From Candidatus Thorarchaeota archaeon (lineage in GTDB: Archaea > Asgardarchaeota > Thorarchaeia > Thorarchaeales > Thorarchaeaceae), in assembly GCA_048882045.1 (NCBI GenBank), contig JBHLRZ010000011.1, positions 26,778 to 90,777 of the forward strand: DNA of 64,000 nucleotides, in the 5' to 3' direction. The notes below the pieces were generated by a model. It was not told where the DNA came from. It worked only from the letters and a program-made list of their open reading frames with translations, and made no database searches. A program made the translations under genes and the position numbers. Of this stretch, positions 17,367 through 51,900 are shown piece by piece (within the stretch, counting starts at the first letter, position 1; every line of letters begins with the position of its first letter).

Positions 17367-17516
17367 CTATTCTAATTGATACACGAATCAGGTATCCTCG
17401 ACCCTCGCGAGATTGAACGTGAATATAACACATTTCATTGGACAGTGTCTGACAAAATCGACACTTTCATAACTGTAGCCCGTTGTCCCTCAGCAATTCC
17501 TTGTGAGGTGCACGCG

Positions 17517-19298
17517 ATGAGTGAGAAACGGAAGCTTCGCTCCCCAATCGTTACCGTTCTTGGACACATAGATCATGGAAAGACCTCATTGCTCGATAAA
17601 ATGCGTGGAACAGGAGTCCAAGATAGAGAGGCTGCTGGAATCACTCAACACATTGGAGCCTCATTCTTCCCAACTGAAACGATTCTTTCCATCTGCGGCG
17701 AACTCTTGAAGTCTGTCAATACCGAACTCACGATTGATGGTCTGCTCTTCATAGATACACCTGGCCATGAGGCATATCTTAACCTCAGACGGAGGGGAGG
17801 GGCTATAGCAGACATTGCAATACTCGTGGTGGACATAAACGAGGGACCTCTCACTCAGTCCTACGAGTCCCTCAAGATTCTTCGCTCAGGAAAGACTCCG
17901 TTTCTTATAGCAGCAAACAAACTCGACAAGGTCCCAGGATGGAGAGACAAACCAGGTATGACTCTTTTTCAGGCAATCAAAGCACAGTCACAGTCTACCC
18001 AGAATGAGATTGATAGACGTCTGTATGAGATTGTGGGTGCTCTCTCAGCTAATGGTATCCAATCAGAACGATTTGACCGTGTTGAGGACTTCAGAAAGAC
18101 CGTAGCCATCGTTCCCACAAGCGCCAAGACCGGGGACGGAATTCCAGAGCTTCTCATGGTATTATCAGGCCTGACCCAACAGTACATGCAGGAACGATTG
18201 AGAGTATCAAAGGGTCCAGCTAGAGGGGCAATCCTTGAAGTTCGCGAAGAAACCGGATTGGGACTGACTCTTGACACAATTATCTATGATGGTGTCTTGA
18301 GTAAGACTGATACAGTGGTCGTGGGCGGACTGGATGACGTCATTGTAGCGAAGATACGGGCGTTATTGCAACCAAAACCCCTAGACGAGATTCGAGACCC
18401 CAAGGAGAAGTTCACTCAGGTCGATAAAGTCCATGCAGCTGCAGGTGTCAAGATTGTCGCTCCCGATATCGAAGGTGCAGTTGCAGGTGCTCCTGTCTAC
18501 GCGGTGCCCGATCTCCAAAAACTCGATGAAATCAAACAACGAGTCAGAGATGAGGTGGGTGCGATACGAATCCAAACGGACAAGTCAGGCATAGTTTTGA
18601 AGACTGATACTCTTGGCTCGTTGGAAGCAGTCACACAATTTCTGCAGGAACGAAAGGTTCCAGTAAGAGCAGCTGATGTGGGTCCAATTGTTAAACGTGA
18701 CATCATAGAAGCCCAAGCTTCAGGTGATACTGATCCATTGAATGCAGTGGTACTAGGTTTCAATGTCAAGTTTGCTCCGGGCATAGAGGATCTTGCAGCT
18801 GAATTGGGCGTTGAAACTTTTCTGAATGAAGTCATATATCGTTTGTATGATGACTACAACGCTTGGTTGATTGTTAAGAGAGAACAAGAAAAAGCCGAAT
18901 CACTGAGCTCCATTATCAGACCAGGGAAAATAGAACTCATGCCAGACTATGTTTTTCGACATAGTAATCCAGCGGTTGTAGGTGTGAAGGTCTATGGCAT
19001 GATTCGACCTAGAACCACATTAATCAACGAAGAGGGCAAACGAGTAGGCACAATTCTACAGATTCAAGACAGAAGCGTCACGATTGACGAGGCCACGGAG
19101 GGTATGGAAGTTGCTGTTTCAATCCGTGGACCGACAATCGGGAGACAGGTGAAAGACACTGAGATTCTCTATACTGACATTCCTGACAAGCATGTTTTGG
19201 CAATCAGAAAGAAGTTCATGGATGATCTCTCACAGTCAGAACAGGAAGTCCTGGAAGAATTCACAACCATCAAACGAGCAGCTGGGGCTTTTATCTAA
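17517..19298 (+). CDS. infB: Translation initiation factor aIF5B (IF-2)
   Basis: LGHIDHGKT, GITQHIGA, DTPGHE, NKLD, DTLGSLEA; RBS-preceded ATG at 17517. Confidence 0.96.
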   Translation: MSEKRKLRSPIVTVLGHIDHGKTSLLDKMRGTGVQDREAAGITQHIGASFFPTETILSICGELLKSVNTELTIDGLLFIDTPGHEAYLNLRRRGGAIADIAILVVDINEGPLTQSYESLKILRSGKTPFLIAANKLDKVPGWRDKPGMTLFQAIKAQSQSTQNEIDRRLYEIVGALSANGIQSERFDRVEDFRKTVAIVPTSAKTGDGIPELLMVLSGLTQQYMQERLRVSKGPARGAILEVREETGLGLTLDTIIYDGVLSKTDTVVVGGLDDVIVAKIRALLQPKPLDEIRDPKEKFTQVDKVHAAAGVKIVAPDIEGAVAGAPVYAVPDLQKLDEIKQRVRDEVGAIRIQTDKSGIVLKTDTLGSLEAVTQFLQERKVPVRAADVGPIVKRDIIEAQASGDTDPLNAVVLGFNVKFAPGIEDLAAELGVETFLNEVIYRLYDDYNAWLIVKREQEKAESLSSIIRPGKIELMPDYVFRHSNPAVVGVKVYGMIRPRTTLINEEGKRVGTILQIQDRSVTIDEATEGMEVAVSIRGPTIGRQVKDTEILYTDIPDKHVLAIRKKFMDDLSQSEQEVLEEFTTIKRAAGAFI

Positions 19299-19334: not shown

Positions 19335-19647
19335 TGCAGCGGGTAGGGCGGGCCGTTTGCCGCGGTCGCGACCACATGGCACTAGTGGCGCCAGTAACCT
19401 CGTGGAGGATGAAACCCAATCACGAAGAGTTTCGCTGTGGGACTGTGATTAGCAGTCTCTGGAGTCTGTTACAGACATAGCAGCATTCGTAGGTTTGTTG
19501 TGATTGTCTTAGATTTCCGAACCGGGTCAGGCCCTGGCGGGAACAGCCCTAAGGATAGGTAGTGGAGCCCCAGAGGGCGCTGCTTTGAGAAACACTGCGA
19601 GCTAACTCAGCGTGAGAAGGACATTCGATACATCAGGGGCTGCTGCA
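19335..19647 (+). ncRNA. Archaeal SRP (7S) RNA
   Basis: About 313 nt, GC-rich; ends pair (TGCAGCGG/CTGCTGCA); Alu-like 5' domain; helix 8 GGGTCAGGCCC-TGGC-GGGAACAGCCC. Confidence 0.85.
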
Positions 19648-19654
19648 CCCTCTA

Positions 19655-20737
19655 TTATTCTTCCTTCAAAATCGAGTCTATCTTCTCAACACACTCGTCG
19701 TAAGGCAGTCTCCAGCTTTCTGACTCTTCACTGTACATGTCAATGAGGTGACAGTATCCTTTGTGGGTATAGTCCACAAGAAACTGAACGAACATCTCGT
19801 CCGTGTACTCTTTCAGACCTCGGAGATGTTTCAGAAACACGTTGGTTTCGGTTGATGGTAAATGGACTTGTACAAAGAAGTGACTACTGCTTTCCATTGT
19901 AATCTGATGGTAGAAAGGTAGTTTGTCAAACCAGAGTAGAATCTTCTTCGCATCCTTTGATTTGAAGAAACACATGACTGTCATGCCTGACTCTGTAAAA
20001 GGCTTCATGACGAGTTTATAGCCTCTAATGATGCCAGACTCCTCGAGTTTCTTGACCCGATTGTGTACCTGTGGTTGTGACAGGTCCAGAATCTCCCCCA
20101 ACTCACGCAGTTTGATATCTGGATTCTCCACCATATGCCTCAGGATCAGTGTGTCTTTTCCATCGAAACTGACTGTCTGAGGGTACTCCTCCAAGTCCAG
20201 TTCAATCTCTTTGGCTCTCGACATAATCTTCGGAAGGGATTCAGCCCACTTCTCCCAGTCCCAGTCTTCAATCTCTGAAAGCTTGGCCTCGAATCGCTGA
20301 TAGTCAACAACATCGAAGAGATAGTAATCCTCAACCAGTCCTTTCTTCTTGAGATCGGCAGCCAGATCAATTATCACACGTGGAGTGTGGAGGGGATAGA
20401 CCGAGTATATCAGGAATCCCTCATATTTTCCATATGTTGTAGCACTAAAGTAGAATACAGGAATTTCTTCCAGTATCTTCTTGAGTTTTGGTTCTTTAGA
20501 AGGAACACTGGTCACGACCAGAATGTATTCAGCCAGACCAAGCTTTCGCTCGTGTGTCTGGACCTTTGCCTTGCAGAGAATTCCACTCTCTTTCAGTTTG
20601 GAGATACGATATCTGATGGTCCTGCCAGGCTCATCTAAGTGCTCACTAAGCTCTCGTGTTGAAACCTTCGTGCCATACTCTTCAAGGGCGCGGAGGATCT
20701 TTAGGTCTAGGGGATCAAGCGAAGATTTCAGAGACAT
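19655..20737 (-). CDS. Lrp/AsnC-family regulator with two wHTH modules
   Basis: LDLKILRAL...TIRYRISKLKESGIL and ILRHM...VHNRVKKLEESGIIRGY. Confidence 0.85.
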   Translation of the reverse strand: MSLKSSLDPLDLKILRALEEYGTKVSTRELSEHLDEPGRTIRYRISKLKESGILCKAKVQTHERKLGLAEYILVVTSVPSKEPKLKKILEEIPVFYFSATTYGKYEGFLIYSVYPLHTPRVIIDLAADLKKKGLVEDYYLFDVVDYQRFEAKLSEIEDWDWEKWAESLPKIMSRAKEIELDLEEYPQTVSFDGKDTLILRHMVENPDIKLRELGEILDLSQPQVHNRVKKLEESGIIRGYKLVMKPFTESGMTVMCFFKSKDAKKILLWFDKLPFYHQITMESSSHFFVQVHLPSTETNVFLKHLRGLKEYTDEMFVQFLVDYTHKGYCHLIDMYSEESESWRLPYDECVEKIDSILKEE

Positions 20738-20788
20738 TGTGGATTATCACCATTCCACGTATTTTACGCTGATGAATATACTTATACT

Positions 20789-20946
20789 TTGGCAAACGTA
20801 TTTAAAAGTAGTCCTACCAAGAGTTGATTTTCCTATTAACTATTGGCAGGTTCGTGATTTTTTCTTTGCCCAAATATCGGCCTAAGTATTGGCAATGTTT
20901 ATATACAAATTGTGCCAGAACTTTAGTAGGTGCTAAAAAATTGGCA
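20789..20946. promoter_or_regulatory. Array of TTGGCA / TGCCA half-sites, putative operator region
   Basis: TTGGCA at 20789, 20843, 20889, 20941; inverted partners at 20815, 20867, 20913. Confidence 0.5.
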
Positions 20947-21196
20947 TTTGCAAAATTAATCAAAAAAATCCGTGCTGAGCCTAATCTGGAGGAGCATCTT
21001 CGGCTAAAGTCACAAGTGCGGACTGAAGTTTACAGAACCTCTTTCCATAGGTAAGCACTAGTCATTCATCTCGAGAAAGAGCCACACCGGTGGTAACGGT
21101 CGTGTGCGCTTCACGACCTCTTTTCTCTTTATTCTAGAAATCTGGCGGACAATGCCTCTGAACATCACCTCAACCTTTGTCATAGGAATCTAGAGC

Positions 21197-21412
21197 GTGA
21201 TCGCAATGCTTGCAACCACGATATACGAGTTCAGTAGAACGGTCATCGAGAGAGTAATTCCAGAGAGAGTCAAGAAACAGAAGATTTTGGAATACAAGGA
21301 CGCCTCGATTGAGCTCCGTCGTCATCTTGCAGCAGAGATTGCAAACAGGGAGTTTGAGCAACGGAAGGACAGAGCACTGACTGAGAACCACAGAACGAGT
21401 TTCATCCGGTGA
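21197..21412 (+). CDS. Small hypothetical protein
   Basis: 71-aa ORF divergent from the regulator, with a long structured leader. Confidence 0.5.
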   Translation: MIAMLATTIYEFSRTVIERVIPERVKKQKILEYKDASIELRRHLAAEIANREFEQRKDRALTENHRTSFIR

Positions 21413-21497
21413 AATTGCCAGCCTGCTACCATTCTGTTGAATTATGTACTTGGTCACAATCTTTATGTGAGAATCAAGAGCCGAACGATTTACCGGT

Positions 21498-21521
21498 GCT
21501 CAGGTAGCCAAGCCTGGTATG
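21498..21521 (+). pseudogene. 5' fragment of a split tRNA-Ser
   Basis: GCTCAGGTAGCCAAGCCTGGTATG is acceptor plus D arm; GCTCAGG is the exact complement of CCTGAGC in the 3' fragment; TTTATG box about 30 nt upstream. Confidence 0.8.
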
Positions 21522-21571
21522 ATTCCTAGTCAATGCTTATCTTGGAGTTGCATACTAAAGATTCGAGGTTT

Positions 21572-22153
21572 ATGGGAGCGCCTTTCATCAAACTATTCTA
21601 TAATTATGGAGCACCTGAAAGAAAGGAGATCGATGTGACAACCCTAGAGATAGGATGGAGTCCCTATGGGAAACAAGTAACTTACATTGACTTTTCAGGA
21701 TTGACTGGGAGTGATTTGATTTGGGGACTTTCAGTCAAGGGTCCGGAAATTCGTAAATTGGACCTCTCTCCGCTGGCTACTTGTCCCAACCTTCGAAATG
21801 TGAATATTGAGTACAATCCTAAATTGAAGAAAGTAGACCTGTCTCCTCTGTCAAGAAGTGACACTCTTCAGATTGTAAAAATCTTGGCAAATTCTAAACT
21901 AGTTGATTTGATACTCCCAAGCACTCCTTCCCTTAGAGAACTGAGAATATCAGGAAACGGCTTAGAACAGATAGATATCAGTCCCTTAGTTGTCTGTGAT
22001 ATACTCACAATATTCTCTATCGACGAGAGAATATCAATACTTATGGATTCGCGTTTCAAGAATGATACTAATCTGCCCAAATCTATTCAACAAATCCGCG
22101 ATCGAGTGATATGGAAAAATCCCCTGTCTAAAGAGAATGGAGCACGAGTGTGA
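21572..22153 (+). CDS. Leucine-rich repeat protein
   Basis: LDLSPLxxCxNL-type repeats. Confidence 0.75.
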   Translation: MGAPFIKLFYNYGAPERKEIDVTTLEIGWSPYGKQVTYIDFSGLTGSDLIWGLSVKGPEIRKLDLSPLATCPNLRNVNIEYNPKLKKVDLSPLSRSDTLQIVKILANSKLVDLILPSTPSLRELRISGNGLEQIDISPLVVCDILTIFSIDERISILMDSRFKNDTNLPKSIQQIRDRVIWKNPLSKENGARV

Positions 22154-22241
22154 ACTGCTGAGCTGTTTCTTGCTTCTAATTCAAGACAACCTGTCCATGA
22201 ACCTTGTTCATCCCATCATCCTTGAGAAGACTCACTAATCA

Positions 22242-22269
22242 AGACTTATCTTGGAGTTGTGTTCTAGAA
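22242..22269 (+). repeat. Repeated upstream module; identical 28-mer at 23590-23617, degenerate copies at 21536 and 22887
   Basis: AGACTTATCTTGGAGTTGTGTTCTAGAA. Confidence 0.85.
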
Positions 22270-22283
22270 GGCAATAAGGGTGT

Positions 22284-22865
22284 TTGAACGTGAGGCGTGC
22301 GATTCAGCTTATTGGCATCCTATTCGCTGTAGTAGTCTTGGTACTCACTTTCTCTCAAAACCTCGGGGAAATCCAATACCTGTTAGCATTTCTAGTATCA
22401 CTTGCAATCATAGTAATTTCATACGTAATTTCTAGGAGTGCAAGCGATAAGGAATCGCCCAAGTATTCCAAAAGGCAAATTGACCGTATGCTCCGCGCTG
22501 AGGAGAAACGCGTAGCAGAGAAAAAACCTTGGAGAACTCCCTTACGAGAATATGAGCTAGGTCCTCTTTCTAGGGAAATTGATCGGATAGAACTCGAAAC
22601 AGTGATACAGAATCCATCTATGGCAGAGGCCTATTCATTCAGAAATAGACTTGAAACGATGATACTATCAGTCGCGAGAAGGAGTATCGACGCGGGAACC
22701 GAGATATCGATGAATGAACTCTGTCAGTTGACTGGACTTGACTTTAAGACGACGAAACAGATGCTGGATTATGTTGGCCGTAGGAGAGGATTCTCCCATA
22801 AATCACGGAAGGTTGGTCCTGACCCAAGACAGGCAATGATTCAATTCTACTCAACCAGAAAGTAG
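22284..22865 (+). CDS. Hypothetical membrane protein (2 N-terminal TM helices, possible C-terminal HTH)
   Basis: Hydrophobic N-terminus; ISMNELCQLTGLDFKTTKQML. Confidence 0.6.
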   Translation: MNVRRAIQLIGILFAVVVLVLTFSQNLGEIQYLLAFLVSLAIIVISYVISRSASDKESPKYSKRQIDRMLRAEEKRVAEKKPWRTPLREYELGPLSREIDRIELETVIQNPSMAEAYSFRNRLETMILSVARRSIDAGTEISMNELCQLTGLDFKTTKQMLDYVGRRRGFSHKSRKVGPDPRQAMIQFYSTRK

Positions 22866-22998
22866 CTTTGGTTAGAACGAATCAAAACTTATGTTGAAAT
22901 TGTATTCTAAAAGGGGGGTCAAAGAGAATGGGATGCGAGTACTGTGAATCAGTGGGAAATGTGTTTCCTAGGTTATAATGATTCGGAGATGAGCCTTA

Positions 22999-23514
22999 AT
23001 GAACAATGATTGGAAGGAGAGTGTCAGAAGCCAAATTAACATGGAACTTGCAGAGATTGTGTTTCAAACTGTGCTACCAAATATAGAGATTTTACTTGAC
23101 AAAGTTCGGGATAGAAAGGACCCCGAAAAAGCATGTAGACTGGCTGATGAAATTGTTGCATCAGTTTATGATCATATTGTCAGACATCCTAGTATAGGAC
23201 AGGATTTTGCATTGAAACCTAGGAAAGTGGAATACCGTCACTTCTTGACAGTGATGATGATGACTCATCTCGATCCTGAAGACACACGCCGCCTTCCATC
23301 GATGGTGTACAAGGATACTGGGGAGGTCCCTTGGTTTGTTATTATTAGAGTTGGATTATGCTCTTTGATGATACTCTTGCATCAAGTTGTCTTTGGCTTC
23401 TTCGAGCAAGTATGGAGCAAGTCTTCATTTGCCACAATAGCAGATTGTAGCAAATCCGATGCCACTTCAGAAATGTTGACAAGATTCAACTTGGAGCTGG
23501 AAACTTGGCTGTAA
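22999..23514 (+). CDS. Hypothetical protein
   Basis: 171-aa ATG ORF, no recognised motif. Confidence 0.55.
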   Translation: MNNDWKESVRSQINMELAEIVFQTVLPNIEILLDKVRDRKDPEKACRLADEIVASVYDHIVRHPSIGQDFALKPRKVEYRHFLTVMMMTHLDPEDTRRLPSMVYKDTGEVPWFVIIRVGLCSLMILLHQVVFGFFEQVWSKSSFATIADCSKSDATSEMLTRFNLELETWL

Positions 23515-23639
23515 GTTAGTGTTGGTCCAAAACAAACTTGCTTTGAACCTCTCTCATCACATCCAGTTTCTTCAATACGGTCTCCAATCAGACTTATCTT
23601 GGAGTTGTGTTCTAGAAAGGGAGTCATGGAGAATGGGGC

Positions 23640-25361
23640 ATGAGTGTCAAGCTGGCCTACACCACTATCAATGGAAACATGGAAGAAGTTGAATTTGAGA
23701 AGGACAAGAAGACAGTTTCACTCGAGTTTAGAGATATTGTGAATGTTGACCTGACTCCACTCAAGTCCTATCCATCATTACAATCACTCGCTCTGAGTGA
23801 CAATCATCTCCAATCTATTGACCTTTCACCCCTAGCATCTATCAAAGACCTTCTACATCTCTATATATCCAGAAATCCACTAGAAAGTATTGACCTGTCA
23901 CCACTGAGTTCTTGTAGTAACTTCACATTACTCTATCTTTCAGAAAACATCCTCAAATCAGTTGATTTGTCACCACTTTCCTCCTGTTTGAAACTCGAAG
24001 ATTTGCGTCTTGAAGGAAATGGACTCCAGACTATCGATCTCGAGCCCCTCCGGTCATGTGAGTCTCTTAGATACCTCTACCTACAAGATAACAGACTTCA
24101 TGAGATTGACCTATCACCACTCAGCTCAACTAATCTAAGAAGCCTTATTCTTCGAAACAACTTGCTTGAGAGCATTGACCTGTCACCACTCAGATCCACT
24201 CCTCTCAAGTTCGGTGATCTCGTTCTGGCCCAAAATAAGCTGAAGAGTGTCAATCTGTCTGGATTTGGCTCTACTGGGTTAGAACGAGTTTTTCTGGCTC
24301 AAAATGAGCTGGAATCCATAGACCTTCTACCCCTCAGATCATGTGTGAAGCTCAGAAGAGTCACTCTTAAAGGGAACAAACTAGAGTCCGTCGATATCAC
24401 ACCTTTCTATCGATTCAAACATGCACTAGTGGAACATGATTATCATTGCATAGACTATTCATGGGTTAGACATCCAAGGAATCGTGGAACCTATAGAAGA
24501 CCTGAAAGGATGTACCCTTGGTCGTTCCTATATGAAGTGGTCAAAGATTTCCCGAATGACTATCAGGTTCAACACGACATCCTTCTGGCTCTTGAACTCG
24601 AGGATTATGGCTTCGTTGATTCCAATCTCACAGACAAGTTTCTCGCCATACCACCTGAAACAAGAACTGAAGATGTTCAAAAGTTACTCATTGAGATACT
24701 CGTAGAAGAGATAGTTGATTCTGTGGATAGAGGAGGACCAACGACAGGTCTCAATCTTGAACGACTCACGAGTAAACATTCTGAGATTGCTTTAAGGGTT
24801 CAGAGAATCGCTGAACTCAGAGCCTTGGAAATGGAAAAGCTGGTTGTGACAGTGAATGAAGACCATCTTCCGATTTTTACTGGACCAGTTGATCTACGTT
24901 ACTTCTGCTTGACGGCTTACGGATATGAGATTCTCAGAACTTTGAAAAAGACTCAAAACTATGGCACATCCTCTCTGGATGTAGAGATGGAGATATTGAG
25001 TCCCATAAAGAGAGCTCTCAAAGAAATCGGATTCACACTGAAGACTGGAGAAGGAAAATCTGGAGTGGAAATGAGTGGCAAACTCCGTAAGTGCATCTGG
25101 TGGATCAAGAAAAATGATGGTTCGAACTGGTATTCTAGAGACCTTGAACCAATAGACCGTCCTGTAACTGAATTGATAGTCCGTACAATAAGTAATCTGC
25201 TTGACGAAAGTCATAGAACAGTTGATTGGGATGAACTCACACAAGTCTTGCTAGGAAAGGGTGTTTCAAAGGATAGGGTTGATGAAACGGTTGCGATGCT
25301 AATCGCGAAGAGATACTTAGACAGAGTTTTTAACAAACTCCGTGTGACGGACAGCTTCTAG
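23640..25361 (+). CDS. Leucine-rich repeat protein with C-terminal wHTH-like tail
   Basis: About 10 LxLxxNxLxxIDLSPL repeats. Confidence 0.88.
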   Translation: MSVKLAYTTINGNMEEVEFEKDKKTVSLEFRDIVNVDLTPLKSYPSLQSLALSDNHLQSIDLSPLASIKDLLHLYISRNPLESIDLSPLSSCSNFTLLYLSENILKSVDLSPLSSCLKLEDLRLEGNGLQTIDLEPLRSCESLRYLYLQDNRLHEIDLSPLSSTNLRSLILRNNLLESIDLSPLRSTPLKFGDLVLAQNKLKSVNLSGFGSTGLERVFLAQNELESIDLLPLRSCVKLRRVTLKGNKLESVDITPFYRFKHALVEHDYHCIDYSWVRHPRNRGTYRRPERMYPWSFLYEVVKDFPNDYQVQHDILLALELEDYGFVDSNLTDKFLAIPPETRTEDVQKLLIEILVEEIVDSVDRGGPTTGLNLERLTSKHSEIALRVQRIAELRALEMEKLVVTVNEDHLPIFTGPVDLRYFCLTAYGYEILRTLKKTQNYGTSSLDVEMEILSPIKRALKEIGFTLKTGEGKSGVEMSGKLRKCIWWIKKNDGSNWYSRDLEPIDRPVTELIVRTISNLLDESHRTVDWDELTQVLLGKGVSKDRVDETVAMLIAKRYLDRVFNKLRVTDSF

Positions 25362-25376
25362 TTCAAGAAGACAAAT

Positions 25377-25490
25377 TGGCGCTGGGGGCGAGATTCGAAC
25401 TCGCGAGTGCATAGCACACTGGATGTTTGCAGAATGCTGGATCAGCTATCATTAGCAATCCAGCGCCCTACCAGGCTAGGCTACCCCAGC
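25377..25490 (-). tRNA. tRNA-Ser(GCT) with canonical 37/38 intron (25425-25452)
   Basis: Full cloverleaf with long V arm, BHB helix TTGC/GCAA, G73, encoded CCA. Confidence 0.92.
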
Positions 25491-25635
25491 TTGAGCAATC
25501 GGTTCGGAATCCCAATTCTCTCATAAACATTGTGACCGAACCTCATCTATTTGTGAAAACACATAAATCACGACCCTCGTAGAGATGCCTTGTTCAGCGG
25601 AAATTGATGTAGAGAGTGAAGCTTTATGCATACTT

Positions 25636-25716
25636 GCCGGGGTGGCTGAACGGTTAAAGCGCCTACCTGAAAAGTAGGTTTCTACGGATATGTGGGTTCG
25701 AATCCCACCCCCGCAA
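25636..25716 (+). tRNA. Aberrant type II tRNA (Leu/Ser-like body, GAA anticodon), possible pseudogene
   Basis: D, anticodon (CCTAC-CTGAAAA-GTAGG) and T arms intact; V arm with cUACGg; acceptor needs a bulge; no CCA. Confidence 0.6.
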
Positions 25717-25746
25717 GATGTTTCAGCACAACTTCTTCTCATTGTT

Positions 25747-27219
25747 CTACTTCAAGGAGAACCGACGCTGACTTACCTTCTTCCCATTCTCACGCACGAA
25801 CTTCTCCAATTCATTTTTTGAAACCTGATATATGCCATCGCCGAGCTCAAATTGGACGAGATCATGGCTATTGCTAATTGCCGAGGAATAATCAGGAACC
25901 TCAACAGATTCGGTTTCAGAAACCCATTCCATTATTTGAGGCTTTGATACCTCGATATAGGATGATTTGACAATGTCTGATTCGCTTTCCATGGCTATTA
26001 TTCCCGCCAATTCGAGAAGCTGAAGAAGAATGTTCAATCTCTTAGTGTTCTTCCCAGAACCTGGAAGATATCCAGACTTCTTACCGAGTGTTTCCTGTAA
26101 TGATTCACGAGTATATTCATCTCTCATCTGGAACAAAAGATGAATGTGGGAACCAAACCAAGTTCTGAGTAGATGAACTCTTAGTGTTTCTTTGGCATCA
26201 AGAGGGACTCCCCAATCCATGCTGGTGACAAAGCTGACTAGAGGAGGGCTTGGTTGCCATCCATCTTGATTTTCAGAGAGTAAATTGATCGACTCCCAAA
26301 ATGACAGACATGTTCTGACATTCTTTTGCGAAACACCCACAACAGATGAAACATCTGAAAGCATGACTGGTGTTCTATCCCGTTCGTACATCGCTGTGAT
26401 TACCTTCAAGGTTTCAATTTGCTTATCTAGAACTAAATTGTGACAGGGAATAGTTTCTCTTGCCGGAGTGTCACTGTAATCTCTGGATACTCTAACAGCT
26501 TTCAGTGATGCATCAAAACTAGAATCTAATGTTTCTTGAACGGGATCTTTTGGTGCTTCTAGTGAAGAATCTGTATGTCTGGCAGAGTCGTCCTTTAATT
26601 CCAACTGACTAAGTAATTTCTCATTCTGTGAGATATCAGAAGTCAGGTTGTAGATGTCACTTGGAGGGTCGAAACTCCCACCTTCCATTCCGAGACTTTT
26701 CAAGATTGGGTTCACATTGATCACGAGGATGCGACCATCTTCTTCCTTTCTGATAACACCAGAAAGAAGACCAGACTCTAGAAATGTCCGTTCAAATTGC
26801 CGGGCAACCTTATCGGTGACTCCATACTGTTGACCTATGAGGTTTCTAAGATAGAGAGGATTCTTGATTCTGGATCCTTTAAATCTTGTATACATTTCTC
26901 TGAACTTCTCCGGATTCAGGAAAGTCAGGATTCTGACTATTCTCTGTTGGGACTCTGACAAGGGCATTCGGAGAGAACGTCCTAATGGAGTCATTTCATA
27001 GTTGCCATTGTTTTGCTTGATGAGACCATACATTCCCATTGCACCTACTGCACTACCAGCACTCATACTATGAGGTGTTGTATATCCCATAATTGTTGTA
27101 AGACTGACTCGATCAACCTGTGATGCAGGTGAAAGGTCAGTAAGCCACTCTTCACATTTCGCGATTGTGTATCGGGGAAATGTGATTGTTTTAGCGCGTT
27201 TCTTAACCACGATATTCAC
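25747..27219 (-). CDS. Hypothetical protein with two predicted winged-helix regions
   Basis: AMGMYGLI..NNGNYEMTPLG and LSDVSSVVGVSQKNVRTCLSFWESINLL patterns. Confidence 0.55.
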   Translation of the reverse strand: MNIVVKKRAKTITFPRYTIAKCEEWLTDLSPASQVDRVSLTTIMGYTTPHSMSAGSAVGAMGMYGLIKQNNGNYEMTPLGRSLRMPLSESQQRIVRILTFLNPEKFREMYTRFKGSRIKNPLYLRNLIGQQYGVTDKVARQFERTFLESGLLSGVIRKEEDGRILVINVNPILKSLGMEGGSFDPPSDIYNLTSDISQNEKLLSQLELKDDSARHTDSSLEAPKDPVQETLDSSFDASLKAVRVSRDYSDTPARETIPCHNLVLDKQIETLKVITAMYERDRTPVMLSDVSSVVGVSQKNVRTCLSFWESINLLSENQDGWQPSPPLVSFVTSMDWGVPLDAKETLRVHLLRTWFGSHIHLLFQMRDEYTRESLQETLGKKSGYLPGSGKNTKRLNILLQLLELAGIIAMESESDIVKSSYIEVSKPQIMEWVSETESVEVPDYSSAISNSHDLVQFELGDGIYQVSKNELEKFVRENGKKVSQRRFSLK

Positions 27220-27308
27220 GTTCCTGCTTGCTAAAATAGCTAGCGTTCGTTACATATGGCTTAAAGTACTAGCGTACGTATTTAAAGGTACCGCTCAATA
27301 TCAACGAG

Positions 27309-27386
27309 TACTGATAGCTAATCCAGCCGTCAGCAAACATCTAGTGTGCTCTGCACTCGAGAGTTCAAATCTCTCCCTGAGCGCCA
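27309..27386 (+). pseudogene. 3' fragment of split tRNA-Ser(GCT), intron retained
   Basis: Intron homologous to 25425-25452, then ATCTAG, V arm GTGC-TCT-GCAC, GAGAG-TTCAAAT-CTCTC, CCTGAGC-G-CCA. Confidence 0.85.
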
Positions 27387-27396
27387 CTTCTTCTCT

Positions 27397-27822
27397 TCAG
27401 CCTTCTTTCAGGTGTAGACGAGTATCACAGAATGGACAATGAACAACATCCGTATCGACTGGGAGTGCATTCACGAGATCAAAGATGTTGTTGCAGTTTC
27501 CACAACGATATCTGTCAGTGCCCGAGATTCTCTCAGCTGGGAGTGCATGCTTTCTCATTGAATCGAGAATTCTATCATCCTGCGAAACATCTGTGGGAGC
27601 GATGCTTCTACCTTGTGCCCAACGAAAGGTCGCATAGAGTCCAAAAATGACCATTGGAATATAGAAGACCATATAGATTGGAATCATGTCTACAGGTCCA
27701 ATGATGGCAATACCTATCGTGCCACCCAGACCTAGAATGAGTATGAGTACAAAGAACAACCACCTAGCTGGGGAAGGACCCGGTTTCTGTTGGTATGGGT
27801 CATAGTAGTCATCTTCTGTCAT
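27397..27822 (-). CDS. Membrane protein with C-terminal Zn ribbon
   Basis: 2 TM helices; CGNC...CPFC. Confidence 0.7.
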   Translation of the reverse strand: MTEDDYYDPYQQKPGPSPARWLFFVLILILGLGGTIGIAIIGPVDMIPIYMVFYIPMVIFGLYATFRWAQGRSIAPTDVSQDDRILDSMRKHALPAERISGTDRYRCGNCNNIFDLVNALPVDTDVVHCPFCDTRLHLKEG

Positions 27823-27890
27823 AGATTGGACACTCCAAATGAAAGTAGGACCTGAAACCTACTAATCTCTTGTGTCTAGGATCAAACATA

Positions 27891-27925
27891 AAATAAGAAG
27901 AGAGAACACGGGCCTCGCAGGCCCG
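27891..27925 (-). terminator. Terminator after tuf
   Basis: CGGGCCT-CGC-AGGCCCG hairpin followed by a T-rich tract on the minus strand. Confidence 0.55.
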
Positions 27926-27941
27926 GTTCTATGAAATTGGA

Positions 27942-29276
27942 CTATTCCTTCTTTCCAGGCTTCGCTTTGGCCATTGTCTTTGGTGTGACTTTCTGGACAA
28001 TGCCAACAGCCACGGTCATTCCCATGTCTCGGACGGCAAACCTACCGAGCTGTGGAAACTCCTTGTAGGACTCAATGACCATCGGTTTGAGTGGCACCAA
28101 CTTTGCAATCATGGACTCACCTTTCTTGACAAAGTCAGGGTTCTCTTCGATGACCTGTCCACTACGCTGGTCAAGTTTCTGGAGGATCTGATCGAACCTG
28201 CATGCCACCTGAGCGGTGTGGGTGTGAATTACTGGTGTGTAACCAACTGTGATGGCACTCGGGTGCTGAATGACCATGACTTGTCCGGTGTAGTCTTCAG
28301 CAACTGTGGGTGGTTTGTCAGTTGGACCAGCAACATCTCCACGACCAAGGTCCTTTCTTTCAATACCTCGCACGTTGAAACCGATGTTGTCACCAGGTAC
28401 TGCCTCAGGCATCACTTCATGGTGCATCTCAATGGACTTGATTTCTCCTTCTTTATTTGGAGGCATAAAGATGACTTTCATTCCTGTCTTCATGATTCCG
28501 GTTTCAACACGACCGACCGGCACTGTACCGACACCCTTGATTGAGTAGACATCGTTGATGGGTACTCGCAGTGGTTTGTCGGTTGGTTTTGGTGGAAGTG
28601 TAACTCCATCAAGAGCCTCTAGGAGTGAAGGACCATCATACCAAGGTGTAAGGTCGGGGGTCCTCTCCTTCAGGTTGGCTGCGTCGAGTGCTGAGGTTGG
28701 AATAAACGGAACATCTTCCTTCTTATAGCCAATGCTGGCTAGAAATCCACCGACTTCATCCTTGACCTCATTGTACCTATCTTCACTGTATTTGACACTC
28801 TCGTCGTCCATCTTGTTAACACAGACAATCAAGCTTGGTACACCAAGAGTCATTGCAAGATAGGCATGCTCCTTGGTCTGGCCACCAGGACCAACACCAG
28901 CTTCGAACTCTCCACGCTTTCCGGACACAACAAGTAGACCAACGTCAGCCTGTGAGGCGCCAGTGATCATGTTCTTGATGAAGTCTTTGTGGCCTGGAGC
29001 GTCAATGATAGTGTAATAGTACTTGTCGGTGAGGAACTTGAAGAAAGCGATGTCAATTGTAAGACCTCTCTCACGCTCCTCTTTCAGTCTGTCTAGAGCG
29101 AAAGCCCAAGCCCAGGAAGGCCTACCAAGTTTCTCGGCCTCAGCCTTGTGCTGCTGGAATGTTCGCTCATCTACTGCACCTGTCTCATATAGCAATCTAC
29201 CCGTCATAGTGCTTTTACCGTGGTCTACGTGCCCTATGACGACGAGATTGAGGTGCTCCTTGTCTTTTTTGCTCAA
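27942..29276 (-). CDS. tuf: Elongation factor 1-alpha
   Basis: [37 protein letters not shown]. Confidence 0.98.
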
Positions 29277-29415
29277 TCTTATTCACCACGTTGTTTTAGT
29301 CTGTCCTCTGAGCTGGACAGACTTTTGCTGTGACCTTTGGCTGTGCTTTTAACGCTTTCGACAAGGTCTATCATTCAGAAGCAATAGGAGCCTTCTATTG
29401 ATTATTGATAGAGTA

Positions 29416-29841
29416 CTATCCAGAGGAAATATTGTTCTTAGTTGATTGGAATTTCAAATATGAAAAAATTCCACCGAGTGCGAACGAAGCCATAGGAACA
29501 ATGATAGCCGCAGAATAGGGCTCTGATGTTGACATTAACAATGTCCCAACCTCAGGCCAAATGAACCAGACCATTCTAGGCATGAAGGTGACCAACAAGA
29601 AGATGATGGGCATGATGATGTGTTCAATGTTGTTAGGATTATTGAACGAGTCATGAAGTTCGGGGTTGTCTTTGAGTGTACGATAGTTCAGAAAAAATGC
29701 AGGAAAGAAACAAATTCCAGTGGCTACTACAAAAGTACCTGCCAATATGACAACCCCTTGACTAGACATCATTATCGATATAGAAATTGCCAGAAGATAG
29801 AGAAGAACAGAGAGTACACCCCTTCTCAATGAACGCACCAC
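29416..29841 (-). CDS. Hypothetical membrane protein (4 TM)
   Basis: Hydrophobic ORF. Confidence 0.55.
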   Translation of the reverse strand: MVRSLRRGVLSVLLYLLAISISIMMSSQGVVILAGTFVVATGICFFPAFFLNYRTLKDNPELHDSFNNPNNIEHIIMPIIFLLVTFMPRMVWFIWPEVGTLLMSTSEPYSAAIIVPMASFALGGIFSYLKFQSTKNNISSG

Positions 29842-44610: not shown

Positions 44611-44800
44611 ATGCAAGCCCCTGTAGTGTATGACCTGCTTCTGAGATTGTGAGTGAACCACAACTGTAAGAAACCTCTGTGTTTCGCCCCTCTCTTGCCA
44701 GTGTCACCACCATCCAGCATTTTCATGAAAATGCTAAACTTAGCAAGAGCATTGTCAACGTTCATTGGGATGGGATCCCTCCTGAAGACCTGGCATCTTT
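44611..44800 (-). ncRNA. Putative TnpB omega-RNA (scaffold plus guide); 5' limit uncertain
   Basis: Dense hairpins downstream of tnpB (20-nt palindrome 44716-44735, CTCTTGC/GCAAGAG, GAAAC/GTTTC, TTGTG/CACAA), ending ...GGTCA then the anti-tRNA-Asp sequence. Confidence 0.55.
44617..44630 (+). pseudogene. 5' 14 nt of tRNA-Asp (split exon and/or TnpB guide)
   Basis: GCCCCTGTAGTGTA, identical to the first 14 nt of the tRNA-Asp at 51900-51887. Confidence 0.75.
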
Positions 44801-46438
44801 CTCCTGTCTTGATGTCGGGGCATCACTCCCAACTACAGAGAGAGTTTCCACAGTATTTTCCACGGCGGGGTCATTATCACCCTTCCCAGATTCATCGCTG
44901 AAGCTGAAAAGACTCGTCTGAGTATGGTGAACAGCCGCGGACTCTCCAAGACCCGATGTTTGATCTTTAGAGGAGAGTAAGGACTTCCCTTGAGAAGACT
45001 TCTTCTTTCGGGCTTTCAGTCGTGCACGTTGAGTCTTATCTAAGACCCTAGTCCACATACCTAGTCCTCTCACAGAGTGCAGTGACTTTGTGAGCTTGAG
45101 CATACGTGCTGCGATGTTGATACTACCGTTCCTGTCAGCATTGGTCTTGTGTCCGCAGGATGGACAGTGGAAGTAGTTCTGCTTGGGTCTCCTACCCTTA
45201 CTTCCACACTTCCAGCACATGATGGAAGTCCAAGCCTCAGGAACGGCTTGGAACCTCGCATCCTTGCCATCGACTTTCCAACCAAGCTGAGCAAGTCCAT
45301 GTTCCAGACTTTCAGTTATCCGGGCAAAGGCCCATGAATTTATCATAGCCCTAAACTTGCGACCTCGGTAGTTTCCTCTTCTGGCACGCATTCGTATATT
45401 CTTTAGACGACCGATGGCTACATAGAGTGTGTATTTCTCAGAGAGTATAGAGATGCAATCAAGAAGTTGTCGAACGAGAACCCTGTCATACTCTTTCGAC
45501 ACATTTTCTCTTTTATTCTTCATCTGACGGAGCCTTTCTGCAATCTTATCGTGTGTCTGTCCGTTCTCTCTCCTGAGATGTAACTCTCTCTGAAGGTTGG
45601 CAACAAGTCGGTCATATTTCTTTATGACTTTGACCTTCTCTTTTTGGATGAAGTATCTTGTTTCCCTCGTCTTCTCTGGAGTTAGGAGAGTTGAACATGC
45701 GGCCTTCTCGATGCCGAGGTCGATTCCAAGTATCGCTACAGGAAGTCCACTCATGTGTAAGTCATCAATCGCAACCCTGACAGCTATTGTCACCCACCAC
45801 TTTCTGAATCGATCAGTGAAGATCTGTACAGCCTTTACATCTCCACGGCGAAGTTGATTCAGGTGAAAGGATGAAACCTTCAAAGGAATGACTAATCTAT
45901 CATGAAATGTACGCCCAGCCTGTACGGAGTCAAGAGAATCCCTTATGTCTAGCCACCAGCGAGCTGAAGATGTACGTTTTTCAACAAGTCTGAATCGTTG
46001 AGCAAAGACCCATCTGGGAATACGTCGACTTCTATTGATTGATGCAGGGCGAGAAGCTCTCAATCCATTCTTCATTCTGAGCTTAAGATAACTCTCATAC
46101 AAAGAAACTGCAATCTGTCTGCACTCGGTCATCTCGTTTTGAGATATTCGAGGGAACCTTGCCTTGAAGTCATGAGGTACGGTTAGTCTCCGACTATAGC
46201 CCGCCTTGACTTGGTGTGCAGTCATAGTGAGCTTATCCAGCTCACCATCATCAATCCGATTTTTCTTACGACCTGTCAACAACTTGTCTTCATGTTGTTC
46301 AATAATTCCAAGGAATGCACGAATCACTCTAGTGTCTCGCCCAATGGTCTGCCTAAGCCTCTGCTTAGTCCTCTCGGTCATGGCTTCCCAGTTGATTGGG
46401 ACCTTCACCGAGATTGTCACACCCTTGGACCGAGCCAT
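44762..46438 (-). CDS. tnpB: TnpB/Cas12f-like RNA-guided nuclease with rearranged RuvC site
   Basis: GIDLG (D240), AIGRL (G343 at RuvC-II), VPEAWTS (E401), CWKC/CPSC Zn ribbon, NADRN (D435). Confidence 0.88.
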   Translation of the reverse strand: MARSKGVTISVKVPINWEAMTERTKQRLRQTIGRDTRVIRAFLGIIEQHEDKLLTGRKKNRIDDGELDKLTMTAHQVKAGYSRRLTVPHDFKARFPRISQNEMTECRQIAVSLYESYLKLRMKNGLRASRPASINRSRRIPRWVFAQRFRLVEKRTSSARWWLDIRDSLDSVQAGRTFHDRLVIPLKVSSFHLNQLRRGDVKAVQIFTDRFRKWWVTIAVRVAIDDLHMSGLPVAILGIDLGIEKAACSTLLTPEKTRETRYFIQKEKVKVIKKYDRLVANLQRELHLRRENGQTHDKIAERLRQMKNKRENVSKEYDRVLVRQLLDCISILSEKYTLYVAIGRLKNIRMRARRGNYRGRKFRAMINSWAFARITESLEHGLAQLGWKVDGKDARFQAVPEAWTSIMCWKCGSKGRRPKQNYFHCPSCGHKTNADRNGSINIAARMLKLTKSLHSVRGLGMWTRVLDKTQRARLKARKKKSSQGKSLLSSKDQTSGLGESAAVHHTQTSLFSFSDESGKGDNDPAVENTVETLSVVGSDAPTSRQEKDARSSGGIPSQ

Positions 46439-51792: not shown

Positions 51793-51900
51793 TGGCGCCC
51801 CCGCCGGGATTCGAACCCGGGTCTCAAGAGTGACAGTCTTGAATGCTAATCCGGATACTGTAAAACATCTACAGTATTGACCGTACTACACTACAGGGGC
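51793..51900 (-). tRNA. tRNA-Asp(GTC), intact, with D-loop intron (51849-51878)
   Basis: CAAGA-CTGTCAC-TCTTG, CCGGG-TTCGAAT-CCCGG, G73, CCA; 30-nt hairpin insert in the D loop. Confidence 0.92.

Follow-up and report, generated by a model that had tools for sequence, protein, structure and literature searches.

How does a cell survive the disruption of a tRNA gene of which it had one copy? The question is raised by a stretch of 64,000 nucleotides (nt) from Candidatus Thorarchaeota archaeon (GenBank assembly GCA_048882045.1, contig JBHLRZ010000011.1, positions 26,778 to 90,777 of the forward strand), here called the window, in which the gene for tRNA-Ser(GCT) lies in two pieces on either side of an island that itself carries a second, divergent tRNA-Ser(GCT) gene. 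The genome, referred to as G000, is an archaeal metagenome-assembled genome of 3.6 Mb and 93% completeness, and the window is part of its contig C11. Coordinates are window positions throughout; L and G labels denote relatives' loci, metagenome contigs and genomes, and C denotes contigs. We consider it likely that a single event broke the resident gene, that its remnants are dead, and that the divergent spare on the insert took over.

The broken resident gene

The left piece contains the acceptor strand GCTCAGG, nt 8-9, the 5' strand of the D stem, the D loop and the first two nt of the 3' strand of the D stem. The right piece resumes within an intron at position 37/38, homologous to that of the island copy, and consists of intron nt 2-28 (27312-27338), exon 2 (27339-27383) with the 3' strand of the anticodon stem, the variable arm, a perfect T arm, the acceptor strand CCTGAGC and G73, and an encoded CCA (27384-27386). 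Missing between the two are 15 nt, GCGCTGGATTGCTAG, comprising 14 exon nt (nt 25-38) and 1 intron nt; this segment spans the 3' strand of the D stem, nt 26, the 5' strand of the anticodon stem, the anticodon loop to A37 and the first nt of the intron. The pieces cannot yield a tRNA because the anticodon is gone. The left piece is preceded by a 46-nt promoter block that is homologous to the DNA upstream of contiguous genes in L094, G004, G012 and G007 and also to the promoter of the island copy.

Both junctions are supported by independent contigs. The left one is bridged by Logan contigs covering 20500-22264 and 20862-22264, and the right one by contigs covering 24792-28134, 24792-27384 and 24792-28404. 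These contigs derive from runs of two studies, include one sample that was not flagged as a possible source, and show zero differences. An empty-site variant, joined across the island, was not found in the contigs of four source-metagenome runs, where the stretches without cover in runs X7 and X8 carry no evidence on such a variant.

The uninterrupted gene in relatives

The genus contains 27 other genomes, and the gene could be extracted from 18 relatives within it. Since a gathering-mode Rfam scan of the relatives' loci missed intron-containing tRNAs, pattern searches and direct reading of the sequence were used instead. In every one of the 18, tRNA-Ser(GCT) is contiguous at this locus, in the order aIF2, signal recognition particle (SRP) RNA, tRNA-Ser(GCT), zinc-ribbon open reading frame (ORF) and EF1A. 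Metagenome contigs, scanned by a pattern with the intron sequence, gave three loci, among them that of the closest relative, L094 (Ga0209536_100008111). Here an uninterrupted GCTCAGG-type tRNA-Ser(GCT) gene (Rfam 49.1 bits) stands in the order aIF2, SRP RNA, regulator, tRNA-Ser, zinc-ribbon ORF and EF1A, and the contig is colinear with window positions 19368-21521 (85% at the nucleotide level) and 27372-29829 (83%). The two fragments are thus colinear with an orthologue that is uninterrupted at the same locus in relatives. Judged by this colinearity, L094 is the empty-site allele, and the resident gene was split by the insertion.

Compared with the working gene of L094, the remnants differ by 1 exonic change in 69 nt (C41>T) and by 2 changes in the intron, while the divergence reaches ~15% in the flanking DNA and ~8 of 46 positions in the resident promoter. 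That the remnants are nearly unchanged although promoter and flanks have diverged indicates a recent split, and on this evidence the two pieces are recent pseudogene remnants.

An initial annotation, made from the letters of the window alone, had proposed a tRNA-Ser(GCT) divided by an island of about 5.8 kb with a divergent replacement inside. Its observation is confirmed and its interpretation supported. The exact size of the insert is 5,790 bp (21522-27311), and the pairing of the two pieces as acceptor strands GCTCAGG/CCTGAGC is no chance resemblance, as L094 aligns with them at 24 of 24 and 72 of 75 positions. The claim depended on relatives having a contiguous GCTCAGG-type gene here, and since the contiguous form is present at this very locus in L094, G015, G031 and G008, it stands. 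The homologous 37/38 intron of the right piece was likewise read correctly and begins at its second nt. As to the missing segment, the loss of the anticodon was rightly recognised, whereas its estimated size of about 12 nt has to be replaced by a gap of exactly 15 nt. Two details did not hold. The letters CTAG/TGCT after the left piece, taken for degenerate tRNA, are part of a promoter module that the island contains in four copies. The T-stem change, read as compensatory, and the acceptor differences are inherited allele types that also occur in relatives and did not arise as compensation after the split.

The intron layout of tRNA-Ser(GCT) varies within the genus. Most species have the 37/38 intron, which is missing from G007 and G017; an extra T-loop intron is found in G018, G009, G015, G031, G033, G008 and G006, and a D-loop intron in G003, G007, G017, G001 and G010. 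A second complete tRNA-Ser(GCT), with the acceptor GCCGAGG and a type-B promoter, was observed in G035 besides the resident gene, at L036 (C217, 659 nt) between unrelated flanks.

The complete copy within the island

The internal tRNA-Ser(GCT) gene lies in inverse orientation and is divided into exon 1 (25490-25453, 38 nt), a 28-nt intron at position 37/38 (25452-25425), exon 2 (25424-25380, 45 nt) and an encoded CCA (25379-25377). All its stems are perfect, the acceptor (GCTGGGG/CCCCAGC) differing from that of the broken allele, and the long variable arm, G73 and the GCT anticodon are present. It has a promoter block of its own, conserved with L095, L096 and G004, and its 37/38 intron is predicted to be spliceable, so by sequence it has every feature of a functional tRNA-Ser gene. 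Genome-wide searches found no other tRNA with a GCT anticodon in the assembly; given 93% completeness, it is the only copy found. EF1A has 17 serine codons, and 8 of them are AGY codons, the kind that such a tRNA reads.

Over promoter plus gene, the internal copy is 80% identical to the broken allele, 91% to L095 (Ga0114921_10033743) and 86% to L096, and the broken allele is 93% identical to L094. In L095, the internal-type allele is the resident gene, placed between the SRP RNA and the zinc-ribbon ORF. In a small maximum-likelihood tree, the split allele and L094 form a clade (support 94/93), and no partner of the internal copy is settled. The nearest relatives of the spare are resident alleles of other Thorarchaeota lineages, and the spare therefore most likely came with the insert, from a related organism. 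The split allele is a pseudogene, and the island-borne allele is probably the working gene.

Are the pieces a split tRNA gene?

Two fragments on one strand, a few genes apart, could in principle be halves of a functional two- or three-piece tRNA joined by trans-splicing. The left piece retains its promoter, a TATA-like box (27279-27286) lies ~25-30 nt upstream of the right piece, and, set against the three-exon alleles of relatives, the pieces correspond roughly to exon 1 and to intron 2 plus exon 3. Split tRNAs of this layout are known from Staphylothermus, where the halves of tRNA-Lys are a few genes apart (Chan, Cozen and Lowe, 2011, PMC3218864). The TATA box, however, fits the divergent gene of a 490-amino-acid (aa) protein in the island, and nt 25-38, with the anticodon, are absent from both pieces. 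A search of the whole assembly for the middle piece, with regular-expression patterns and a 16-mer allowing up to 2 mismatches, returned the internal copy plus matches at chance level in coding context. None of these candidates had flanks pairing with the trailer or leader beyond background, and none stood out; the trailer/leader duplex itself, computed with RNAduplex, was no better than 77% of shuffles. An intact, contiguous isoacceptor gene is also present in the island. Trans-splicing has next to no probability in our assessment. With neither a third piece nor complementarity between trailer and leader, the pieces are best taken as dead remnants, in agreement with the initial annotation, which had held the split allele non-functional unless a third piece existed elsewhere.

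Other contents of the island and its surroundings

The features of the locus are collected in Table 1.

Table 1. Features of the split tRNA-Ser(GCT) locus, in window coordinates
Feature	Position	Strand	Basis or remark
Promoter block of resident tRNA-Ser(GCT)	21452-21497	+	type-B upstream element, core CTTTATGTGAGAAT
5' remnant, nt 1-24 of resident tRNA-Ser(GCT)	21498-21521	+	24/24 identical to L094 tRNA
Inserted DNA, 5,790 bp in place of 15 nt	21522-27311	.	absent from L094
3' remnant of resident tRNA-Ser(GCT), intron nt 2 to CCA	27312-27386	+	72/75 identical to L094 nt 40-114
Complete tRNA-Ser(GCT)	25377-25490	-	Rfam tRNA 50.2 bits (25380-25490 without CCA), anticodon GCT
Promoter block of internal tRNA-Ser gene	25491-25537	-	inverted repeats I2/I4 with resident promoter
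First of four copies of a shared upstream module (promoter/5' untranslated region)	21533-21560	+	repeat families D2/D4, alignment A2
Leucine-rich repeat (LRR) protein gene, 193 aa from internal ATG (listed ORF starts 21533)	21572-22153	+	Pfam LRR_4
193-aa ORF	22284-22865	+	no family match
171-aa ORF	22999-23514	+	no family match
573-aa LRR protein gene	23640-25361	+	Pfam LRR_4/LRR_8
Aberrant tRNA-like gene, GAA anticodon	25636-25715	+	ARAGORN, Rfam 53.6 bits, fold
490-aa orphan, two tandem repeats of a winged-helix-rich module	25747-27219	-	homologues and AlphaFold model
aIF2/IF-2	17376-19298		housekeeping neighbour of split tRNA-Ser gene
SRP RNA	19336-19646	+	housekeeping neighbour
Double helix-turn-helix (HTH) regulator	19655-20737	-	between SRP RNA and tRNA-Ser
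Zinc-ribbon ORF	27397-27822	-	beyond the interval
EF1A	27942-29276	-	beyond the interval, after the zinc-ribbon ORF

The left part of the island consists of four consecutive genes that share an upstream module of 28-46 nt, ~39-47 nt ahead of the start codon. Its first copy starts 11 nt from the left junction and the others start at 22242, 22885 and 23590; the 15-mer core of the module occurs in the genome only at these four sites. The last three of these genes also share part of the preceding intergenic junction (23520-23568), a 40-49-nt piece of which recurs twice on contig C10. In run X7, another contig has an 82-nt match to the upstream module. The first of the four gene products scores 26.8 against LRR_4, just below the gathering cut-off of 27 bits, and has distant paralogues elsewhere in the genome (~30-38% identity); both it and the 573-aa protein belong to a large Thorarchaeal LRR family. 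No second copy of the left part was found within the G000 genome, which was the only genome compared.

Between the internal tRNA-Ser gene and the right junction, two features stand out. The tRNA-like gene with a GAA anticodon has a class II body with a long variable arm and a bulged or mismatched acceptor; it lacks the encoded CCA that the native tRNAs inspected have. No homologue of it was found in the genome or the genus, and a canonical tRNA-Phe(GAA) is present elsewhere in the genome (C54:9361). The 490-aa orphan has 435 remote homologues of 230-280 aa, each matching either half of it; within the genus no close homologue was found, only one in G003 at 29%. Its AlphaFold model (pLDDT 83.5) consists of winged-helix arrays, with weak fold matches to other such arrays, e.g., SelB-C, TFIIIC tauB and the recognition domains of the type IIS enzymes FokI/BpuJI. 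The protein was considered as a nuclease or recombinase and rejected: searches by sequence, in the ESM Atlas and by fold returned only winged-helix arrays, and no catalytic domain was found in it. Across the genus, none of the 27 other genomes matches window positions 24900-27311 (the spare, the tRNA-like gene and the 490-aa gene) at the DNA level except in the tRNA itself, and the island has no match in viral contigs.

Outside the island, the SRP RNA scores 80.5 bits, under the Rfam gathering score of 96.5, as do those of relatives at 67-90 bits. Small ORFs come after the double-HTH regulator and before the split tRNA-Ser gene. The regulator is only 46% identical to its counterpart in G004 (L062:13728-14816, +), where the orientation is reversed, and just its C-terminal part is retained in L095. 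The region between the SRP RNA and tRNA-Ser is rearrangement-prone. Further downstream in the window, at 51796-51858 (-), lies a tRNA-Asp(GTC)-like sequence that scores 29.7 bits and is defective in its 5' part.

How the insertion may have happened

In the explanation that we prefer, a single insertion-deletion event, probably non-homologous and of the break-repair type, would have destroyed the single-copy resident tRNA-Ser(GCT) and put 5,790 bp of accessory DNA in the place of 15 nt. The event would have been viable only since the inserted DNA brought a working tRNA-Ser(GCT). The AGY codons would now be read by this inverted gene, its 37/38 intron being excised by the archaeal splicing endonuclease. 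If no working copy exists outside the insert, the cell depends on the inserted DNA and can no longer shed it.

The ends of the island are compatible with such an event: no terminal inverted repeat, no direct or attachment-site (att) repeat and no target duplication was found there. As the initial annotation had noted for mobility genes, searches of the island ORFs against Pfam, NCBIfam, PHROGs and PADLOC detected no integrase, transposase or nuclease. A six-frame search of the whole assembly for PF00589 was negative as well.

Several observations count against this explanation. The junction positions look less random than expected from simple break repair: on the right, the break is 1 nt into the canonical intron, and on the left it falls within 1-3 nt of the ends of tRNA fragments in G039 and G034, described below. 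No enzyme was recognised for the insertion. The tree does not settle the grouping of the internal allele with L095, and an origin of the internal copy as an old paralogue keeps some probability.

tRNA genes are the usual targets of tyrosine-recombinase elements, and the locus could be what decay has left of one or more of these: two att integrations, one at the 5' part and one at the 3' half of the gene, followed by inversion and deletions that removed the integrase and scrambled the order. The content of the locus, with the 5' part twice, the middle once and the 3' part twice, is what two integrations would leave, and a full plus a partial tRNA copy, sometimes on opposite strands after inversion, have been documented in Thermococcales (PMC9897764). 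Islands of the classical, integrase-mediated kind do occur around this tRNA. In G015 (L068:9468-13800) and G034 (C113, L092), a 4.4-kb insertion with membrane-protein genes lies directly 3' of tRNA-Ser(GCT); at its end stands a degenerate repeat of the 3' end of the tRNA, a further copy of which is present in G015 at L068:11094. In G000 itself, the 3' end of tRNA-Leu(CAG) recurs in three exact 20-nt copies on the same strand, 0.5, 0.9 and 3.5 kb downstream of that gene (C9:64567-68197), and tRNA-Leu(TAG) on C2 has a comparable 24-nt repeat behind it. The repeats resemble att-type footprints, though no PF00589 integrase was found in the assembly. The island, however, lacks what defines such an element: it has no integrase, the repeated parts have no identical att core (no identical run exceeds 9 nt, at 83% identity over 86 nt), and the fragments do not overlap, so that the tRNA is restored at neither end. 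The internal copy is moreover no chimera but one coherent allele, which agrees with L095 at 91% along its entire length, and several extra steps would be required. This origin is distinctly unlikely.

An in-place inversion of the gene core with duplicated ends (a staggered-break order of a, b', m', a', b) would produce exactly the observed arrangement, in which a full inverted gene stands between a 5' and a 3' piece and alone contains the 15-nt middle. In this model, later insertions would have added the LRR array and the segment with the tRNA-like gene and the 490-aa gene, and a foreign allele would have converted the functional copy. G039, discussed below, would be the compact form, in which the 3' flank of the inverted gene resembles the resident 3' flank, and its mosaic allele shows that mosaics exist. 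An old in-place duplication predicts the reverse of what is seen, however: the remnants are almost identical to the L094 gene and the working copy is 18-20% different. Four or more events would be needed, and we regard this course as very improbable. The single break-repair event with a spare on board remains the preferred explanation.

Inverted genes and fragments in related genomes

In G039 (JASFEF010000009.1, L100:3430-3700) and L096 (JABAHP010001773.1, L096:320-580), the locus carries a complete tRNA-Ser(GCT), inverted with respect to the SRP RNA and EF1A and flanked by plus-strand remnants of an older resident gene. On the left side in G039, 16-18 nt equal to nt 6/8-23 of a G012-type allele are followed by 28 nt and by the inverted gene with its promoter, which is a mosaic of two allele types; on the right, 31 nt lead to CCTCCCTCAGCGCCA (the last 15 nt) and then to the zinc-ribbon ORF. 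L096 retains a 3' remnant. In G034, contig C161 (L075:2893-2974) carries a decayed 3' fragment of an internal-type tRNA-Ser(GCT) that starts at ~nt 22 and has a mutated T loop and no CCA; this fragment adjoins a STAND NTPase-TPR gene, away from the resident locus. In raw positions, the fragments thus end or start at nt 24 in G000, nt 23 in G039 (5' remnant) and nt 22 in G034.

The G039 locus also contains a TnpB insertion sequence (L100:3699-4904, -; Pfam OrfB_IS605 and TNB, Cas12f1-like). Its right end, placed at ...GTTTCGGGNAACGG by an alignment of 11 copies of the family, abuts tRNA-Ser nt 8-23 exactly, which is the position of the omega-RNA guide. Its left flank is the T-rich SRP RNA terminator, similar to the T/C-rich, TTCT-like flanks of other copies and unlike the bases that precede nt 8 in the tRNA-Ser gene. 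Since the SRP terminator and not the tRNA supplies the left flank, the adjacency looks secondary, and on the simplest reading of these flanks the insertion sequence would have landed beside an existing tRNA remnant. The family is multicopy, with up to 19 copies in G015 and none in G000. The three TnpB domains of G000 lie on C21, on C33 and in the window at ~45.1 kb; the last belongs to a 558-aa ORF with a TnpB TNB domain (44762-46438, -) that is unrelated in sequence to the G039 element.

The similarity of these loci allows a selfish 'knock out and replace' process. A nuclease or recombinase with a preference for sites near nt 22-25 of tRNA-Ser(GCT), acting in trans or no longer present, would make the cut, the insert would survive by means of its divergent spare, and the G039 and L096 arrangements would be products of the same process. 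The topology does recur in the latter two as a full inverted gene with plus-strand remnants, the fragment ends cluster at nt 24, 23 and 22, and the G039 element ends exactly at a guide position. The G000 island, on the other hand, contains no nuclease, no TnpB, no guide and no match to the G039 element or its right-end motif, and no guide-like match of at least 15 nt to the resident tRNA-Ser was found anywhere in the genome; a TnpB link in G000 was therefore ruled out, as no element was found. The left flank in G039 mismatches tRNA-Ser, as described above. Nor would the spare be protected, as the 15 nt lost from the resident gene are nearly identical in it and this segment gives no immunity. 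Taken together, such a process is unlikely. A more general form is doubtful too: that tRNA-Ser(GCT) of Thorarchaeota is recurrently hit at nt 22-25, the junction of D stem and anticodon stem, by DNA that ruins the resident gene and brings an inverted, divergent, self-sufficient tRNA-Ser, with G000 (5.8 kb of cargo) and G039/L096 (without cargo) as two outcomes, possibly nuclease-driven.

Significance and comparison with known systems

With its empty site in hand, the locus is a clean natural case of probably foreign DNA splitting an essential, single-copy tRNA gene of an Asgard archaeon, either at the intron or right beside it. It suggests that accessory DNA can become fixed without an addiction toxin, by carrying the sole working copy of an essential gene. 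Should the recurrent hits on tRNA-Ser(GCT) be real, they would amount to a strategy of replacing the essential gene, after which the accessory DNA could not be dispensed with. Both the clustered ends and the inverted-gene arrangements suggest that the locus could be used to test site-specific targeting of tRNA genes in Thorarchaeota.

Islands in archaeal tRNA genes that leave tRNA fragments are known, including PYG1 in Pyrococcus yayanosii and a prophage in a Thermococcus tRNA-Arg gene with later inversion (PMC9897764). As in these, accessory DNA lies within a tRNA gene with partial tRNA copies at its ends, a full and a partial copy stand on opposite strands, and the locus is a hot spot in relatives (G015 and G034). 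In contrast to them, the G000 island has no integrase and no identical att direct repeats and restores its target at neither end; the function would be supplied by an inverted but complete tRNA gene in its interior that has a promoter of its own. The resemblance to IS200/605-type TnpB elements beside tRNA fragments, as in G039, lies in the pairing of an essential tRNA gene that is broken with a working, divergent copy beside it, whereas no TnpB, element end or guide is tied to the tRNA-Ser island of G000.

tRNA genes of Asgard archaea are intron-rich and structurally variable (PMC11291895), which agrees with the differing intron sites (37/38, T loop, D loop) of tRNA-Ser(GCT) among species of the genus. 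Unlike these introns, the interruption described here is 5.8 kb of protein-coding DNA and was accompanied by the loss of exon sequence.

Randau and Soll reportedly proposed the splitting of a tRNA gene in such a way as the origin of split tRNA genes. The same origin, mobile DNA hitting a tRNA gene, was put forward for the split and tri-split trans-spliced genes of Nanoarchaeum, Caldivirga, Staphylothermus and Aeropyrum (Chan, Cozen and Lowe, 2011, PMC3218864). The G000 gene is similar in that its 5' and 3' parts are on the same strand, a few genes apart, and that one break is at a canonical intron. It differs in that the pieces are incomplete, lack complementary flanks and a bulge-helix-bulge motif, and coexist with an intact gene of the same anticodon. 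No working split gene resulted, because exon sequence was lost and the spare apparently took over. The defining features of tRNA-integrating islands and those of split tRNA genes are equally missing from the G000 locus, which looks like a failed or aborted split and not like a working one.

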